Assembly: GCA_018304145.1 (NCBI GenBank) | Contig: JAGVWU010000006.1 | Span: 1 to 58,708, forward strand | Direction of reading: 5' to 3' | DNA: 58,708 nucleotides | Source of the DNA: Candidatus Pacearchaeota archaeon | GTDB taxonomy: Archaea; Nanobdellota; Nanobdellia; Pacearchaeales; GW2011-AR1 | Part shown: in pieces, positions 13,014-43,979 of the stretch | Layout: the number at the start of each line of letters is the position of its first letter | Position numbering within the stretch: the stretch's first letter is position 1 | The notes under the pieces: model-generated | The model's input: only the letters and a program-made list of their open reading frames with translations | Told to the model about the DNA's origin: nothing | Database searches by the model: none | Made by a program: the position numbers and the translations under genes

Positions 13014-13385
13014 TTATTCTTTTTTTGTTTCTTTTTTCTTTTCACTTTCAGCTTTCTTAGCATCTTCTTCAGCTTTTTTTGCTTCAGCAGATGCCTTTGC
13101 TTTTTCTTCTTCTGCTTTCTTTTCAGAGTCTTTTTGCTTTTTTGTTTTTTGAATTGCTTTTTCCAAATCATGCTTTGAATCATAAAGGTAAGCTTTAATC
13201 AGAAAGGTTTTTCTTCCAAATTTTCCTTTTATATTATAGACATCAATGGAATCTTCTGGTTTGGAAAATTTTTCTGAAAGCATTTTTCTAATTTCAGGGA
13301 AACTTGGATTTTTATCAGATTCTAAAATAAAAGAAATTTCCTGTCTTTTGAATAATTCATTTTTTGATTCTTTTTGTAGTTGCAT
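13014..13385 (-). CDS. rps24e: 30S ribosomal protein S24e with Lys/Glu/Ala-rich C-terminal tail
   Basis: NELFKRQEISFIL...PSFPEIRKMLSEKF...VYNIKGKFG matches S24e. Start taken at the internal ATG 13385 (MQLQKESKNE). Confidence 0.8.
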   Translation of the reverse strand: MQLQKESKNELFKRQEISFILESDKNPSFPEIRKMLSEKFSKPEDSIDVYNIKGKFGRKTFLIKAYLYDSKHDLEKAIQKTKKQKDSEKKAEEEKAKASAEAKKAEEDAKKAESEKKKETKKE

Positions 13386-13570
13386 AAAAAATATTAAGAT
13401 TGAGGGTTTAAAAATCCTTGCCTTAAAACTTTTATATTCCAATAAATTTTATTAATTCATAAACCAAAAATACTGGCCAGATAAGTGCTTTTAAAAATCC
13501 TAAAACAACCATCCAGAAACTGTACGCAGTTAAAATATATAATTATTGCTTCAATAAAATTTATATTCTT

Positions 13571-13756
13571 TTATAATTTAATAGAATAAATTCCTTTTTT
13601 AGAAATTTTTAACTTTTGGGCAAGCTCTGATTTTTCAGGATTTATAATTTCAATTTTTCCTTTAAAGCTATCAGAACTTTCCTTTTTTCCACAATTAGGA
13701 CAGCTTTCTCCTTCATATATTAATTTGCAAGTTTTGCATGCTTTTTCTTTTGCCAT
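13571..13756 (-). CDS. spt4: Transcription elongation factor Spt4 (RpoE'')
   Basis: 61 aa, CKTC...CPNCG zinc ribbon. Located next to rpo7, as is typical in archaea. Confidence 0.8.
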   Translation of the reverse strand: MAKEKACKTCKLIYEGESCPNCGKKESSDSFKGKIEIINPEKSELAQKLKISKKGIYSIKL

Positions 13757-13982
13757 GTTTATTTAATAATTTTATAAATTTAATTCAAGTCCAGCAGTTG
13801 ATGATTCTATAATTTTTAATTCTCTTAAATCAGGAATTTTTTGCAATAAAATTTTTTCAGCTTCCTCTAAACTTCTGGCAGGTAAACCTCCTATTTAAAT
13901 CCCCCTCTTAACTTTCCATGATAATTATAATAATTAGACCTATTTATTTCTCTATTCATGCCAGGTTTTGGTGTATGAATTG

Positions 13983-14585
13983 TCATTTTGCTTTCTTCAC
14001 CTTCCTTTCTGCTTTTTCAGCTTTTGTGGCTTTTTTTGCATTAGCCATTGTTTTTTTCTTTTCTTCTTTTATCCATTCTAATTTTCCTAGTCCTGGCTGT
14101 CTCATTGTCAAGCCTACTTTAGGATTATCGCCTTTGTATGATATAGCGACTATTCTTGCCAAACATTCATCTTTTTTCTTTAAAATTCTTTTTGAATCTT
14201 TTCCTAAGAGAGTGTTGGTTGTTGAAAAACTTACATAGTCATCCATTGTCTGGCTTATATGAATCATTCCTTTCATCACACTAAGATTTATAAATGCTCC
14301 AAAATCAGTAATCTCGTCGATTAGTCCATAGACTAATTCATTCATTTCAGGTTTCCAAGCCAATAATTTGAATTTAGAATCATAGTAAGCAGCTCCATCA
14401 CAGGGAATTATAACTCCATTCCCAACCTCTAAAATAGATATTATTCCAATTACTTCCCCTATTTCTTTGTCGTGGTAATGTGCATAAATTTCCTGCAATT
14501 GTTTGGCAACAGCATCGCTAGTTTTAAGGCCAAATAATTTCGGCTCTACTCTTACATAATCTTGAACTTCAACTATATAGAACAT
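13983..14585 (-). CDS. rpo7: DNA-directed RNA polymerase subunit Rpo7 (E') with Lys/Ala-rich C-terminal tail
   Basis: MFYIVEVQDYVRVEPKLFG N-terminus, then an S1-like domain (GLIDEITDFGAFINL...GMIHISQ). Confidence 0.85.
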   Translation of the reverse strand: MFYIVEVQDYVRVEPKLFGLKTSDAVAKQLQEIYAHYHDKEIGEVIGIISILEVGNGVIIPCDGAAYYDSKFKLLAWKPEMNELVYGLIDEITDFGAFINLSVMKGMIHISQTMDDYVSFSTTNTLLGKDSKRILKKKDECLARIVAISYKGDNPKVGLTMRQPGLGKLEWIKEEKKKTMANAKKATKAEKAERKVKKAK

Positions 14586-14609
14586 GTTGATTTTAATAAA
14601 AAAAGTAGA

Positions 14610-14617
14610 TTTATAAA
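14610..14617. promoter_or_regulatory. Shared palindromic TATA box (TTTATAAA) between rpo7 and the sigma-70-like gene
   Basis: Box centre is 28.5 nt from the rpo7 ATG (14585) and 25.5 nt from the internal ATG 14639 of the sigma ORF. Confidence 0.5.
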
Positions 14618-14638
14618 GGTTTCTTTATGACTTTTATT

Positions 14639-15748
14639 ATGGCTGAATTAAATTGTTATTTAGGTCTTGCAGATTATTTGACTGATATAGGTAATCTACC
14701 TTTTGCATCATGCCCTTTAAATGAAGATTCTATAAGCTTTGCTAAGGAAAGAGAGAGAAGAAATATAAAGCTTGGAACTATTGTGCAAAGGTATCTTTTA
14801 ACTGAAAGAAGGTTATCAAATAAAGTTGAAGGTTTGGAAAAAGAATTTTTAGGAAAATTGGGATTAGCTGAACCTGTTTTATATGGAAATTTTGGAAAAA
14901 TAATGCAATGGACAAATGAATATAGAGAAAAAATTAAATCAACAAGAAAAAAATTAGAGGATTATAGGAGAGACAATTCTCCTGCTTATATTCAGGCAAA
15001 GCAAGTAATTTCTGAATCTTGCCTTTTTCTTGTTGTTTATTGGGCAAAAAAATATGCTGAAAAATTTAACTTAAATGTTAATGATTTGATTGGATATGGA
15101 AACAGAGGGCTGATGCATGCTGTTGAGAAATTTAATCCTAAAAGAAAGTGTCTATTCTCAACTTATGCAACTTTTTGGATTAGGCAGTCTATATCAAGAG
15201 GGATAGCTGATGAAGAATGCAAAGGAAATTTTTCACTCTCTTATCCAATGTATAAAAAGAGAGGTAAAATATTAAAGATAGAAGAGTTATTATTTTCAGA
15301 GTTGGGCAGGAATCCTAATGAAGAAGAAACAGCCAGAAAATATAATGAGGTTTATTGCTTAAAGGATTCCCGTAGCAGAATAAAACTTGAAGATGTAAAA
15401 GTTTTAAGGGCATTAAGACGAGTTTCAAGATTATCCTTGTTAGGCTGCGATAAAGATAGAGAATTTGATGTTGAAGATATTCGTTCAGAAGCCTCTTTTG
15501 AAATAGCAGCAAGAAACGATGGAGTTAGAGAAGTTTTGGATTATTTAGATAATTCTGGAAGATTTACTTCTGATGAGATAGAAGTTATAAAATATCGTTT
15601 TGGAATTGAAAGGGATCCAAGAACTTTGAAAGAAACAGGAACTATATTAAAATTGACAAGAGAAAGAATAAGGCAAATTGAAGCAAAAGCACTTCAAAAA
15701 TTAAAAAACCGTTTTGATCCTATGTACAGGCAGAGTCTTGTAGGATAA
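14639..15748 (+). CDS. Bacterial-type sigma-70 family RNA polymerase sigma factor homologue
   Basis: Region 2: LVVYWAKKYAEKF..DLIGYGNRGLMHAVEKFNPKRKCLFSTYATFWIRQSISRGIADE. Region 4: IEVIKYRFGIERDPRTLKETGTILKLTRERIRQIEAKALQKLK. The ORF track starts at 14627, but TATA spacing favours ATG 14639. Confidence 0.85.
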   Translation: MAELNCYLGLADYLTDIGNLPFASCPLNEDSISFAKERERRNIKLGTIVQRYLLTERRLSNKVEGLEKEFLGKLGLAEPVLYGNFGKIMQWTNEYREKIKSTRKKLEDYRRDNSPAYIQAKQVISESCLFLVVYWAKKYAEKFNLNVNDLIGYGNRGLMHAVEKFNPKRKCLFSTYATFWIRQSISRGIADEECKGNFSLSYPMYKKRGKILKIEELLFSELGRNPNEEETARKYNEVYCLKDSRSRIKLEDVKVLRALRRVSRLSLLGCDKDREFDVEDIRSEASFEIAARNDGVREVLDYLDNSGRFTSDEIEVIKYRFGIERDPRTLKETGTILKLTRERIRQIEAKALQKLKNRFDPMYRQSLVG

Positions 15749-15783
15749 AAAACTAAAAAAGAAAAATAAATAATTTTTATAGA

Positions 15784-16212
15784 TTATTTTGTCAGCATCA
15801 ATCTTTTAAATCTATTAATTAAAATTACCCTTCCAAGAGCAGACCTCATTTCCCTGTCTAAAGTGCAGACAATATTTTTTTTGTCCTGATTTGCTAAATT
15901 AATAATAGCATCATCTACATTTTTGCCCTGTGTTTGTATAATTTTAATTTTATTGAATTCAAGCAGCTGCAAAGCCAAATTTGCAGCGTCCTTGTCTCTT
16001 CCAGTTGTTTTCTTGAATTTGGGATTTCTTGCTTTTAGAAGCCATGAATTTTTTTCCTTAGTTTTTTTGATGATTTTTACAAGCTCATCAACAACCTGTT
16101 CAGGAACAACTAATTCAAATCCTTCTTTTATTAAATTTCCAATCTCTTCTTTGTAATCTAATTTGTTTTTTGCACAATAAACAAGGAAATTAGTGTCTAA
16201 TATTATTTTCAT
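15784..16212 (-). CDS. PIN-domain endonuclease (Fcf1/Utp24-like)
   Basis: MKIILDTNFLVY..., VVPEQVVDEL, DDAIINLA...IVCTLDREMRSAL: acidic PIN residues in Fcf1-like spacing. Confidence 0.6.
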   Translation of the reverse strand: MKIILDTNFLVYCAKNKLDYKEEIGNLIKEGFELVVPEQVVDELVKIIKKTKEKNSWLLKARNPKFKKTTGRDKDAANLALQLLEFNKIKIIQTQGKNVDDAIINLANQDKKNIVCTLDREMRSALGRVILINRFKRLMLTK

Positions 16213-16233
16213 GAATTTTTTAAAACAATATTA

Positions 16234-16241
16234 TTTATATA
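16234..16241. promoter_or_regulatory. Shared TATA box (TTTATATA) for divergent genes starting at 16212 (-) and 16263 (+)
   Basis: Box centre is exactly 25.5 nt from both ATGs. 50 nt separate the start codons. Confidence 0.55.
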
Positions 16242-16262
16242 GTTACTTATTAAAAATAATTT

Positions 16263-16658
16263 ATGATTTACAGAGGGTATGCAATTTTTAGAAGAATGGG
16301 AGGAAGAATTCTAGAAGTTCCTGATAGTAATCCTCATTATCATGGAAGCATTGAAAGAATTGGAGAAAGAAATTTTATTTCATTAGCCTTGCAAGATCAT
16401 ATTGATAATCAGATAGAAACACTTGTGCATGAATTGTTGCATCTTGGCTATGAATATAGAACTCCTCAATATAAAATTATTCCTGGATTACCAATTCCTA
16501 AAGAACTTGGAATTACAATAGAAGAAGCAAAAAAATATATAGGGGATATGGAAAAATTAATTGAAGCAGAAACTGAAAAAGTATCGCAAACTCAACCTCT
16601 TTTGGTTAGTCATTTAAGAGAATTAATAATTAATAGCAATAAACATACCAAACTTTAA
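16263..16658 (+). CDS. Hypothetical protein with HExxH motif (possible small metallopeptidase)
   Basis: LVHELLHLGYEY. Confidence 0.45.
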   Translation: MIYRGYAIFRRMGGRILEVPDSNPHYHGSIERIGERNFISLALQDHIDNQIETLVHELLHLGYEYRTPQYKIIPGLPIPKELGITIEEAKKYIGDMEKLIEAETEKVSQTQPLLVSHLRELIINSNKHTKL

Positions 16659-31861: not shown

Positions 31862-32036
31862 TGAGCCCACCAAGATTTGAACTTGGGACCCCCGCCTTTC
31901 TTAGCTATTTTGCTTAGAAAATAAATTTCTAGCGAAACCTTCAAATCGTGAGATTTGAATGGTCCAGAGAAAATCAAATTTTCTCTGAATCTATTCTTAT
32001 AAGAGCGGTGCTCTAACCGGGCTGAGCTATGGGCTC
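31862..32036 (-). tRNA. tRNA-Ile (anticodon UAU) with a 100-nt intron at the canonical 37/38 position
   Basis: Exon 1 is 32036-31998: GAGCCCA TA GCTC AGCCCGGTTA GAGC A CCGCT CTTATA. Exon 2 is 31897-31862: A GGCGG GGGTC CCAAG TTCAAAT CTTGG TGGGCTC A. The intron is 31997-31898. A central 4-bp helix CUUA/UAAG is flanked by 3-nt bulges UAA and AAA, consistent with a (relaxed) BHB. Confidence 0.75.
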
Positions 32037-36116: not shown

Positions 36117-38906
36117 ATGGCTGAAAAATTTGTTTATTCATTTAAAGAAGGAAATAAAGAAATGAAGGAATTGCTCGGAGGAAAAGGAGCAAATCTTGCT
36201 GAAATGACTTCTATTGGATTGCCAGTTCCTCTTGGATTCACAATTACTACAAGAGTGTGTGATTTTTATTATAAAAATAATAAAAAGTTGTCTGCTGAAA
36301 TACAGGAACAGATTTTTACAAAATTAAAGGAACTTGAGATAGAAATGGGGAAAAGACTTGGAGATAAAAATGACCCTTTGCTGGTTTCTGTGAGAAGCGG
36401 TGCTGCTTCATCAATGCCTGGAATGATGGACACTATCTTGAATTTGGGGTTAAACGATGAAACTGTTGAAGGCTTGGCTATTAAAACAGGAAATCCGAGA
36501 TTTGTCTATGATTCTTACAGAAGATTCATACAGATGTTTGGAGATGTTGTAATGGGAGTTGAGCATAAATTCTTTGAAGAAATTATTCATAGAATCAAAA
36601 GCCAGAAGATGATAAAATTTGACAATGAACTGAATGTTGATGATTTAAAGAGATTGATTGAAATGTACAAACAATTAATTAAAATGAAAACTAATAAGAT
36701 GTTTCCTTCTGATGTTCATGAGCAATTGAGCATGGCTATAGATGCTGTTTTTAATTCGTGGAATAATGACCGGGCAATAACTTATAGAAGGTTGAATAAC
36801 ATTTATGGTTTAATTGGAACTGCTGTCAATATACAGTCAATGGTTTTTGGAAACATGGGAGAAGATTCTGGGACAGGAGTTTGTTTTACAAGAAATCCTT
36901 CAACAGGAGAAAACAAATTTTATGGAGAGTTTTTAATGAATGCACAGGGAGAGGATGTTGTTGCTGGAATAAGAACTCCCAGAAAGATTGAAGAACTGGA
37001 AAGCATAATGTCTGCAAATTATTCTCAATTGGTTAATGTCAGAAAAATTCTTGAAGCTCATTACCGAGATATGCAGGATATTGAATTTACAATTGAAAAG
37101 GGAAAATTATATATTTTGCAGACAAGAAATGGAAAAAGAACAAGTCAGGCTGCTGTAAGGATTGCAGTTGAAATGGTGGAAAATGGAATGATAAGCAAGG
37201 AAACTGCTTTGATGAGAGTAGAACCAAGTTCTTTAAATCAATTATTGCATAAACAATTGGACAATAATTCAAAGAAAAATATGAAAGTATTAGCAAAAGG
37301 TTTGCCTGCTTCTCCTGGCGCTGCTGTTGGAAGGGTTGTTTTTAATGCAGAAGATGCCTATGAATGGGCTGTAAAAGGGGAAAAAGTTGTTTTAGTAAGA
37401 TTAGAAACAAGTCCTGAAGATATTGAAGGAATGCACTCTTCGCAGGGAATTTTAACTGGCAGAGGTGGAATGACTTCACATGCAGCTGTTGTTGCCAGAG
37501 GAATGGGGAAATGCTGTGTTGCAGGATGTTCAGATTTGATTATAAATGAAATTGAGAAAATAATTGAAATAAATGGAGCAAGAATAAGAGAAGGGGAATT
37601 TATAACTTTAGATGGAAGTTCTGGAGAAATATTCTTAGGAAAATTAGAATTAGTTGAGCCAATTTTATCTGGAAATTTTGGAAAAATAATGCAATGGGCA
37701 GATGAATACAGGAAAATAGGTGTAAGGACAAATGCTGACACTCCTAAAGATGCCTCGACTGCCATAAAATTTGGAGCAGAAGGAATTGGATTATGCAGAA
37801 CAGAACATATGTTTTTTGAAGAATCCAGAATAAAAGTAATGAGAGAAATGATTTTATCAAATACAAAGCAAGAAAGAGAAAGGGCTTTGTTAAAGCTTCT
37901 TCCAATGCAAAGAGGAGATTTTTATTCTTTATTTCAAATAATGAATGGATTGCCTGTTACAATCAGGTTTTTAGATCCTCCTTTGCATGAGTTTTTGCCA
38001 AAGGAAGAGGATAAAATTCAGGAATTAGCAAGGGAAATGGGTGTTAGTGTAGAAGTGTTAAAAGATAAAACAGCTGAACTGCATGAATTTAATCCAATGT
38101 TAGGGCACAGAGGATGCAGATTAGGGATTACTTTTCCTGAGATTACTGAAATGCAGTCAAGGGCTGTTTTTGAAGCAGCTTCTGAGATAATAAAGGAAGG
38201 AAAATCTATTGTTCCTGAAATAATGATTCCGATTGTTGGAAATATAAAAGAATTTGAGCATCAGAAGAAAATAGTTGATGAAACAGCTAGAAAAGTTATG
38301 AGAGAAAATAATGTCCTTATTGAGTATAAAACTGGAACAATGATTGAGGTTCCAAGGGCTGCTGTGACTGCTGATGAGTTAGCTGAAAAAGCTGAATTTT
38401 TTTCTTTTGGCACAAATGATTTGACTCAAATGGGATGCGGTTTTTCAAGAGATGATTCTGCAAAGTTTCTAAAAGAATATGTTGAATTAGGAATCTATAA
38501 AAGAGATCCTTTTGAAACAATTGATCAGGAGGGAGTTGGTGAATTGATGAAAATTGCAGTTCAAAAAGCAAAGCCTGTTAGAGAGAATATAAAGTTAGGA
38601 ATCTGCGGTGAGCATGGAGGAGATCCTGAAACAATAGAATTTTGTCATAAAATAGGATTAAGTTATGTTTCATGTTCACCTTTTAGAGTTCCTATTGCAC
38701 GATTAGCCGGAGCGCAGTCTTCAATAAAAGAAAAAAAGAAAATTGAAGAAAATGCTTATAAGAAAATGATTAAAGAATCAATTATTGAAATTAGAAATAA
38801 ATTTGGTGAGAGAATTTCTATTGATGAATTGGAAAATGAACTTTATAAAAAGATAAATCCTAAGGCTGTGGAAAACCTATTCACACAGGAAATCTTACAA
38901 AATTAA
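36117..38906 (+). CDS. ppdK: Pyruvate, phosphate dikinase
   Basis: Full-length match by eye: GGKGANLAEM, SVRSGAASSMPGMMDT, TGRGGMTSHAAVVARGMG (phospho-His), NADTP, GLCRTEHMF, GTNDLTQ. About 55 aa C-terminal extension. Confidence 0.95.
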   Translation: MAEKFVYSFKEGNKEMKELLGGKGANLAEMTSIGLPVPLGFTITTRVCDFYYKNNKKLSAEIQEQIFTKLKELEIEMGKRLGDKNDPLLVSVRSGAASSMPGMMDTILNLGLNDETVEGLAIKTGNPRFVYDSYRRFIQMFGDVVMGVEHKFFEEIIHRIKSQKMIKFDNELNVDDLKRLIEMYKQLIKMKTNKMFPSDVHEQLSMAIDAVFNSWNNDRAITYRRLNNIYGLIGTAVNIQSMVFGNMGEDSGTGVCFTRNPSTGENKFYGEFLMNAQGEDVVAGIRTPRKIEELESIMSANYSQLVNVRKILEAHYRDMQDIEFTIEKGKLYILQTRNGKRTSQAAVRIAVEMVENGMISKETALMRVEPSSLNQLLHKQLDNNSKKNMKVLAKGLPASPGAAVGRVVFNAEDAYEWAVKGEKVVLVRLETSPEDIEGMHSSQGILTGRGGMTSHAAVVARGMGKCCVAGCSDLIINEIEKIIEINGARIREGEFITLDGSSGEIFLGKLELVEPILSGNFGKIMQWADEYRKIGVRTNADTPKDASTAIKFGAEGIGLCRTEHMFFEESRIKVMREMILSNTKQERERALLKLLPMQRGDFYSLFQIMNGLPVTIRFLDPPLHEFLPKEEDKIQELAREMGVSVEVLKDKTAELHEFNPMLGHRGCRLGITFPEITEMQSRAVFEAASEIIKEGKSIVPEIMIPIVGNIKEFEHQKKIVDETARKVMRENNVLIEYKTGTMIEVPRAAVTADELAEKAEFFSFGTNDLTQMGCGFSRDDSAKFLKEYVELGIYKRDPFETIDQEGVGELMKIAVQKAKPVRENIKLGICGEHGGDPETIEFCHKIGLSYVSCSPFRVPIARLAGAQSSIKEKKKIEENAYKKMIKESIIEIRNKFGERISIDELENELYKKINPKAVENLFTQEILQN

Positions 38907-39502: not shown

Positions 39503-39677
39503 TTAACACATAAAAAATGCTCTTTGCGTACGCTATGGGCTTTAGTCCATAAAAAGCAAAGGCATTTTTGGGGTAATCAAGAACCAAACACGCCATATGA
39601 AACAAAAAAAATATTTTTACTAATTATTATAAGATTGGAAAATGCTTTTTGTTTGCTTTAGCCCATGATTCTTGACA
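39503..39677 (+). repeat. Dispersed structured repeat, family A, copy 2 (with about 55-nt internal insertion)
   Basis: Matches 2534-2653 with 6 mismatches over the first about 97 nt, then again over the last about 22 nt. There are extra AT-rich nucleotides at about 39598-39655. Confidence 0.85.
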
Positions 39678-40420: not shown

Positions 40421-40565
40421 TGGTTTGTAGCAAGGAAGTTTTAATTAATGTTATGCAGGATGGGTTGTTGGTTTTGAAAAACAATTAATTCTAAATATTA
40501 TAAATTGCGTCTAGAAAATTATAGGGAATAACATTAATTTTCGTATATTTATTATGTTATTCCCC

Positions 40566-40633
40566 AATACAAGAAAATTCATTCAGAGGAATTTTCTGTA
40601 CAGAAAATCTTCCTGAAAAGATTTTCTTGTATT
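40566..40633 (+). repeat. Dispersed hairpin-cluster repeat, family B, copy 1
   Basis: 13-bp outer stem aatacaagaaaat / attttcttgtatt. Overlapping inner hairpins attttctg ta cagaaaat and aaaatctt cctgaa aagatttt. Similar to 43911-43979. Confidence 0.7.
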
Positions 40634-40673
40634 GAAGTTATTTGCTATAATAATATACTTATTTGATAGAATA

Positions 40674-43910: not shown

Positions 43911-43979
43911 CAAGAACACATGAAAATCTGCAGGATTTTCTGTGCAGAAAATTCTTTTGAAAGAATTTTCTTGCATTGA
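43911..43979 (+). repeat. Dispersed hairpin-cluster repeat, family B, copy 2
   Basis: attttctg tg cagaaaat and gaaaattctt ttga aagaattttc followed by ttgcattgaa. Collinear with 40566-40636. Confidence 0.7.

Follow-up and report, generated by a model that had tools for sequence, protein, structure and literature searches.

An in-frame patch of ppdK linker sequence in the sigma-70-like gene of a Pacearchaeota-type archaeon, probably copied from within the same genome

How does a gene for a sigma-70-like protein come to carry, in frame, a stretch of about 80 nucleotides that is nearly identical to an internal piece of the gene for pyruvate, phosphate dikinase (PPDK)? The question is raised by a 58.7-kb stretch of DNA, here called the window and analysed over its whole length, which has a GC content of 28.7% and is archaeal in character: besides many housekeeping genes of archaeal type, it contains rpo7, spt4, an intron-containing tRNA and the gene for ribosomal protein S24e. 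The host is a tiny, Pacearchaeota-type DPANN archaeon from groundwater. Among named organisms, its PPDK and Rpo7 proteins are most closely related to those of Pacearchaeota and "Nanoarchaeia" MAGs, with the isolate STB_103 nearest.

When the window is aligned to itself, positions 14845-14924 of the sigma-like gene pair with positions 37631-37710 of ppdK without a single gap, and 69 of the 80 nucleotides are identical. The longest perfect run spans 28 nt (14884-14911 = 37670-37697, TGGAAATTTTGGAAAAATAATGCAATGG). Both tracts lie on the + strand, 22.8 kb apart, and have the same reading frame: 21 of 27 amino acids agree between sigma residues 74-100 (FLGKLGLAEPVLYGNFGKIMQWTNEYR) and PPDK residues 506-532 (FLGKLELVEPILSGNFGKIMQWADEYR), and BLASTP of the protein pair returns E=4e-11. 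Self-blastn of the window finds the same pair over a slightly longer interval (14828-14931 against 37615-37716) with E=1.6e-22. For comparison, when ungapped 80-mers of the sigma gene are set against the remainder of the window, both strands included, they reach at most 47/80 on all other diagonals, the best 80-mer per diagonal averaging 33.4 identities (sd 2.6), and the 60-nt blocks flanking the tract match ppdK at only 13-23 positions. The similarity is real and sharply bounded, with background-level identity on either side. These values rule out a chance match in AT-rich DNA, and convergence cannot account for identity at synonymous sites. A first-pass annotation of the locus had reported the ungapped match, the perfect run and the shared frame, all of which the self-alignment bears out. 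The perfect run could be taken as a hint of constraint, but its length is not unusual: given 11 differences, it has P=0.07, so that the clustering of differences outside the core is not significant. Since 27 nt of the same core are also identical between the ppdK genes of the window and STB_103, the unbroken core can be ascribed to strong AT codon bias. The tract is present in two copies within the window.

The recipient gene occupies positions 14627..15748 of the + strand and encodes a protein of 373 aa that Pfam, NCBIfam and Foldseek assign to the sigma-70 family (RpoD-like). It scores 38.0 bits against Sigma70_r2 (PF04542, cut-off 24), 46.5 against Sigma70_r4 (PF04545, cut-off 24.1) and 69.8 against TIGR02937 (cut-off 42.9), and Foldseek matches its AF2 model to Thermus sigmaA with E=5e-10. 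The NCBIfam model RpoD_Cterm covers residues 124-362 (E=4e-43) at a score under its equivalog cut-off; because the RpoD equivalog cut-offs are not reached, the protein is not considered a bona fide RpoD. A subfamily-specific helical-hairpin domain occupies its N-terminal region (residues ~1-123) and is followed by sigma regions 2-4. The gene is divergent from its neighbors on the - strand, rpo7 (13983..14585), which encodes the archaeal RNA polymerase subunit Rpo7 (RpoE') as judged by the Pfam domains SHS2_Rpb7-N and S1, and spt4 (13571-13756), another gene of the window. The position upstream of rpo7 is kept in relatives, being found also at loci L003, L103 (STB_103), L091, L092 and L108. Sequence conservation is another matter. 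Between the window and STB_103, amino acid identity is 92% for Rpo7 and 89% for PPDK versus 38% for the sigma-like protein; dN of the sigma gene ranges from 0.30 to 0.47 (0.30 against L002, where dS is 0.68), versus 0.06 for rpo7 and ppdK. Judged by these rates, the sigma-like protein evolves unusually fast. Sigma-70 genes in bona fide DPANN contigs have already been reported, without anti-sigma factors and with their role unexplained (Castelle et al. 2021, PMC8204110), and the present gene belongs among them. The PPDK-derived patch is absent from that paper, as are, from its passage on these genes, the rpo7-adjacent synteny and the extreme evolutionary rate of the gene.

The other copy lies within ppdK (36117..38906, + strand). 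Its 929-aa product is a full-length, bona fide pyruvate, phosphate dikinase, scoring 1412.7 bits against TIGR01828 (cut-off 843.45) and containing the Pfam domains PPDK_N, PEP-utilizers and PEP-utilizers_C. Its syntenic counterpart, the ortholog of Nanoarchaeia archaeon STB_103, shares 82.7% of nucleotides and 89% of amino acids with it. In alignments to solved PPDK structures, the segment in question (codons F506-R532, positions 37632..37712, + strand) pairs with residues 505-532 of 1KBL/2DIK, the enzyme of Clostridium symbiosum, and with the equivalent residues of 2X0S. This stretch is linker 2, which connects the PEP/pyruvate TIM barrel with the phospho-histidine domain, the swivelling part of the enzyme, and which stops shortly ahead of the conserved VRTNADTP motif. 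Across 118 PPDK homologs the linker pattern F.G..L.EP.LSG.F...M.WAD..R is near-invariant. Structure alignment and homologs alike thus agree with the original description of the segment as the conserved PPDK linker leading into the NADTP motif.

No such linker is seen in the other known members of the sigma subfamily. Only four further proteins with this N-terminal domain, P0002, P0003, P0121 and P0122, emerged when 5.8e9 clusters were searched by word index and 1.84e9 representatives exhaustively by HMM, and a PPDK-like stretch was found in none of the four; an unrelated, shorter sequence occupies the site. For instance, the window reads LEKE FLGKLGLAEPVLYGNFGKIMQWTNEYR EKIKSTRKK at this position, P0002 reads LEEK TEPGASLKIPKGHTCGEIVRGYK RQLRSARKK and P0003 reads LEQR AKQEIGSVIPEGYTPVRLIKGYE EKIESARRR, while P0122 is 13 aa shorter. 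This last protein is encoded next to rpo7 in STB_103 (L103), so that by position it is the ortholog in the named genome that is closest; the STB_103 gene was located only via its rpo7 neighbor. Searches for related loci with the subfamily alignment gave no confirmed relative in genome contigs and were dominated by bacterial sigma factors in metagenome contigs, and the SCL.LVV motif, searched as a degenerate DNA pattern, gave no matches. A profile of the four patch-free members shows no similarity to PPDK (hhalign probability 0.6%), a value on which prior homology between the sigma N-terminus and PPDK, as a driver of ordinary gene conversion, was rejected. Because the linker is kept in 118 of 118 PPDKs and is absent from all four other subfamily members, the syntenic ortholog of STB_103 included, the donor is ppdK and the tract was received by the sigma-like gene of this lineage alone, in the direction that had been proposed at first sight.

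The borders of the transferred tract can be approximated by comparing codons among the window, L002, L003 and ppdK. The best estimate places the captured patch at 14846..14926 (+ strand), corresponding to codons F74-R100 and about 81 nt. Native sequence extends through GAA AAA GAA (L-E-K-E) on the left and resumes from GAA AAA ATT (E-K-I) on the right, and the 27 codons between them stand in place of about 23 native ones, a net gain of 12 nt that leaves the frame intact. The notion of a segment capture therefore holds in the form of a replacement of ~23 codons by 27, not as a pure insertion. The upstream extension of the BLAST alignment (14828-14844), which requires a 2-nt gap, was set aside as a chance purine-rich likeness; it is native sequence, near-identical to the L002 sigma ortholog. 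Candidate microhomologies of 3-5 nt at the junctions (GAA on the 5' side, AAAAT on the 3' side) are A-rich and uninformative at this GC content. As a side observation, MAFFT tentatively places the beginning of bacterial region 1.2 (IPEGI..DPVRMY) opposite the native residues that were lost in the replacement (IPEGY-TPVRLIKGY).

Which ppdK served as the source, and how long ago? Among 118 PPDKs the patch is nearest to the resident protein (21/28 aa), followed by that of STB_103 (20/28), with the rest at 18 or fewer. Over 84 nt, the patch is identical to the resident ppdK at 71 positions and to the STB_103 gene at 70, and the two ppdK genes are identical to each other at 71. The patch also carries the resident-lineage states L75, K77, N88, G90, K91, I92, Q94 and Y99, as well as a derived xTT codon 84. 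Such sequence affinities support an earlier version of the resident ppdK as the putative source and hence an intragenomic origin, in keeping with the first-pass annotation.

The 13 differences between the patch and the resident gene were polarised with the ppdK genes of STB_103 and of a Woesearchaeota lineage that is more distant (L005). The sigma branch accounts for seven changes (six non-synonymous, one synonymous) and the resident ppdK branch for three (GAG, ATT, AGG), and three are ambiguous. The sigma-branch ratio of 6:1, over ~68 versus ~15-16 sites, is not significantly off neutrality, and relaxed and positive selection are indistinguishable at this size. Nei-Gojobori proportions for patch versus ppdK are pS 0.28-0.38 and pN 0.10; the corresponding values for ppdK of the window versus STB_103 are 0.61 and 0.064. 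Four substitutions, V81A, S86Y, A96T and D97N, hit positions that are near-invariant in PPDK (S86 is present in 109, A96 in 113 and D97 in all of 118 homologs), and so the patch is no longer under PPDK-type constraint. The 11 transitions and two transversions, which are spread over all four donor bases, amount to ordinary divergence. By the distribution of patch-free orthologs, the capture postdates the split from their lineages (STB_103, L002/L003), and it is not very recent. The initial description of the event as recent therefore stands insofar as it is lineage-specific, but the copies have already diverged, at 13 of 84 nt and the pS given above.

The predicted structure offers a context in which such a replacement could persist. 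The AF2 model of the sigma-like protein has a mean pLDDT of 78 and derives from a 43-sequence alignment in which three sequences only cover the N-terminal region. It contains a helix at residues 35-80, a turn at 81-85 and a second helix at 86-131, with block pLDDT of ~89-96 on either side of the patch and 68 at the turn. In the model the patch runs from the final turns of helix 1 through the AEPVL turn into helix 2, of which it makes up the initial 15 residues, and it is thereby predicted to form the tip of an antiparallel helical hairpin that precedes sigma region 2. The hairpin tip is the most length-variable part of the subfamily, and similarity to bacterial sigma profiles begins at about residues 93-124, at or past the patch. 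A foreign turn and helix at this modelled tip would likely be tolerable, given the length variability of the site and the very fast evolution of the protein.

The most probable account, in our view, is that the segment is a tolerated repair patch, ectopically templated by the resident ppdK, that shares no function with PPDK. On the branch that led to this archaeon, a tract of about 81 nt would have been copied from the resident gene into the sigma gene 22.8 kb away. A break or a stalled fork in the sigma gene may have been repaired by synthesis on the ectopic template, as reconstructed from the product only, through template switching, templated insertion or short-tract non-allelic conversion. 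The copying would have had no flanking homology to draw on and little microhomology, no more than a few A-rich bases. The new allele would have survived because it was in frame and located at the hairpin tip of a fast-evolving protein; the PPDK piece, which comprises a strand end, a Pro-containing turn and an amphipathic helix, would simply have happened to provide a turn and the start of a helix. Afterwards the patch may have drifted free of PPDK constraints, and it would now be a plain part of the sigma-like protein.

Other origins have to be weighed against this account. An artefact of assembly or of chimeric reads has next to no probability, as has a similarity due to chance or convergence; nothing was found in favor of any of these. 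At least 23 contigs, spread over 41 index blocks, carry the exact 373-aa protein, and five fetched loci are nucleotide-identical to the window across the whole sigma gene (JGI 3300025121; ENA ERZ909574, from SRR2177952, groundwater; ENA ERZ5996431; Logan SRR2177950; Logan SRR3989342); the contig from JGI 3300009031 is identical to the window over 3270 nt. Recovery from independent samples and assemblers thus disposes of the caveat of mis-assembly that accompanied the first description. In addition, the patch differs by 14-15% from every known ppdK, is in frame and has two clean junctions, whereas near-identity with the source would be expected of a chimera; chance and convergence founder on the excess over background and the synonymous-site identity described above. 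A foreign donor is a more serious proposition, if still an unlikely one: the patch would then descend from ppdK DNA, or an mRNA-derived copy, of a related strain or species, through a tiny horizontal transfer. The near-equidistance of the patch from the resident and STB_103 genes (71/84 and 70/84) is what such a transfer might leave behind, and at five sites the patch agrees with STB_103 and not with the resident gene. These five sites, however, are synonymous or ancestral and the same states recur in the outgroup L005, as expected from an earlier version of the resident gene, while the derived xTT codon 84 and Y99 are common to the patch and the resident lineage. The best 120 of the 8000 scored PPDK hits contain nothing closer.

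A different set of alternatives concerns function. The patch could have been selected, as a surface mimicking the PPDK linker or simply as a better hairpin tip, giving the protein a new partner or more stability. It is fixed and nucleotide-identical in all sampled populations, non-synonymous changes prevail on the sigma branch by six to one, and the core GNFGKIMQW is unchanged. Yet the ratio over ~68 versus 16 sites is not significantly non-neutral, the unchanged core is explained by codon bias (it is likewise identical between ppdK orthologs), sigma orthologs are hypervariable at the site in both length and sequence, and S86, A96 and D97, near-invariant in PPDK, have been replaced in the patch. 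On balance, selection for function appears improbable, and a protein-level role of the patch has nothing positive in its favor. A stronger form of the idea, in which the patch is a co-opted module that docks the exposed sigma hairpin tip onto the contact surface of the PPDK linker, is very unlikely; the candidate docking sites under it would be the nucleotide-binding or PEP/pyruvate domains of PPDK or a PPDK partner. The earlier suggestion of a shared recognition element at the protein level is not supported, in view of V81A, S86Y, A96T and D97N. Its nucleic-acid counterpart, an element common to both copies such as a structured RNA, a DNA site bound by a protein or the target of a common sRNA or antisense RNA, draws on the perfect 28-nt run and its identical synonymous positions. 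Against it, fold z-scores relative to shuffles for both strands of both copies are -0.67, +0.18, +0.60 and +0.95, Rfam gave no match, just two copies exist in 58.7 kb, and the run, unremarkable in length at P=0.07, is equally kept between orthologous ppdK genes. The RNA-level suggestion is accordingly not upheld by the folding and Rfam results, and a shared nucleic-acid element of any of these kinds is exceedingly improbable.

If the segment is a tolerated repair patch, it arose by a mutational event of a kind already known, and the gene that hosts it is unusual. The locus points to no new biological system. Its value lies in being a clean natural case in which a prokaryotic protein gained a short in-frame piece of an unrelated protein of its own genome without a mobile element, with donor, recipient, approximate borders, relative age and structural context all readable from the sequence. 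To our knowledge, such captures have seldom been documented beyond experimental eukaryotic break-repair systems. Short intragenomic capture is, in this light, one route to mosaic proteins. The patch also marks the N-terminal hairpin tip of the DPANN sigma-like proteins as a permissive, hypervariable site, which is useful for studying the role of a bacterial-type sigma factor beside archaeal rpo7. Were the co-opted-module reading true, a sigma-like regulator would be coupled to the central PEP/pyruvate node, and the locus would exemplify a natural sub-domain, 'exon-shuffling-like' innovation in an archaeon.

Several known systems invite comparison. Diversity-generating retroelements are reported from DPANN archaea and likewise involve a pair of ~80-100-nt repeats, one in a coding region and the other a master copy, with scattered substitutions between them; here, in contrast, the donor is a functional housekeeping coding sequence. 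A template/variable repeat (TR/VR) pair of this type was also rejected on other grounds: the 13 differences comprise 11 transitions and two transversions, the donor base is A at only five of them (G at four, C at three and T at one), and a reverse transcriptase domain was not found among window ORFs of at least 120 aa. An insertion of the mobile element, MITE or intein type was rejected as well, there being two copies only, no repeats at the patch borders and no transposase or integrase found in the window. Ectopic gene conversion between paralogs resembles the present case as a one-way, short-tract copy within a genome in the same orientation. It requires homologous flanks, however, whereas the two genes here are unrelated (hhalign 0.6%) and identity outside the tract is at background level, so that the gene conversion once proposed for this locus is unlikely in its classical form. 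The closest likeness is to templated insertions and MMBIR/FoSTeS-type template switching, known mainly from yeast and human cells (for example PMC11724301, PMC8421209). Such events take tens to ~100 nt from a distant, non-homologous locus, have sharp borders, lack flanking homology and leave the donor intact, all as seen here; the patch differs from them in being an old, fixed, in-frame replacement in an archaeal coding gene instead of a fresh somatic or experimental event.

A second repeat within the window is non-coding and pairs positions 2534-2630 with 39503-39599 over 97 nt at 94% identity, with one copy beginning at the stop codon of hisS and its partner about 600 nt downstream of ppdK, the pyruvate, phosphate dikinase (PPDK) gene. 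On folding, the repeat forms a pair of strong hairpins (MFE -42.5 kcal/mol, z = -4.8), and its core motif GCTTTAGCCCATG occurs six times when up to 2 mismatches are allowed, compared with 0.87 occurrences expected. Related hairpin motifs are located at 2570, 2631, 33079, 39539, 39655 and 50837 (minus strand). No Rfam family reaches its gathering score for this repeat, which might encode a small structured RNA or represent a miniature repeat element.

Other features are scattered along the same stretch. Intergenic DNA close to PIN-domain and adenylate kinase genes contains a pair of related, imperfect palindromes (40565-40634 and 43915-43978), each roughly 70 nt long and 80-81% identical both to the other and to its own reverse complement. 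A 159-aa ORF at 43403-43882 matches the Pfam family 'Putative phage metallopeptidase' (PF18894, E=8e-19) and is surrounded by otherwise housekeeping genes; an orthologous region with 81% nucleotide identity is also present in the closest named genome, STB_103 (L004, 964-1445). On the minus strand, the tRNA gene at 31862-32036 covers 175 nt and gives a 49-bit match to the full Rfam tRNA model, so it probably harbors a long intron; ARAGORN makes no call for this gene.

The JGI contig Ga0103682_10022787 (L001) is 100% identical to window positions 13269-16538. Beyond ~16538 it continues (L001 3271-3788) into unrelated sequence with a ribosomal protein L20 gene, and the breakpoint falls inside a 131-aa ORF (16263-16658). 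This discontinuity reflects either a rearrangement at the strain level or a break in the assembly.

Compared with its counterparts in STB_103 (locus L103) and at L002 and L003, the sigma-like gene (14627-15748) has evolved extremely fast relative to its neighbors. Between the window and STB_103, amino acid identity is just 38% for the sigma-like protein versus 92% for Rpo7 and 89% for PPDK, and dN for the sigma-like gene is 0.30-0.47, whereas rpo7 and ppdK have values of about 0.06. The sigma subfamily sharing its N-terminal domain has only 5 known members among 1.84 × 10^9 representative proteins. In the window (13983-15748), this sigma-70-like gene is divergent from and upstream of rpo7, with spt4 situated behind rpo7. 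The sigma-like/rpo7 arrangement recurs in several Pacearchaeota and Woesearchaeota genomes (L003, L103, L091, L092 and L108), where the sigma-like proteins exhibit amino acid identities of only 27-38%. It is intriguing that a bacterial-type sigma gene is found in conserved linkage with the gene for an archaeal RNA polymerase stalk subunit.
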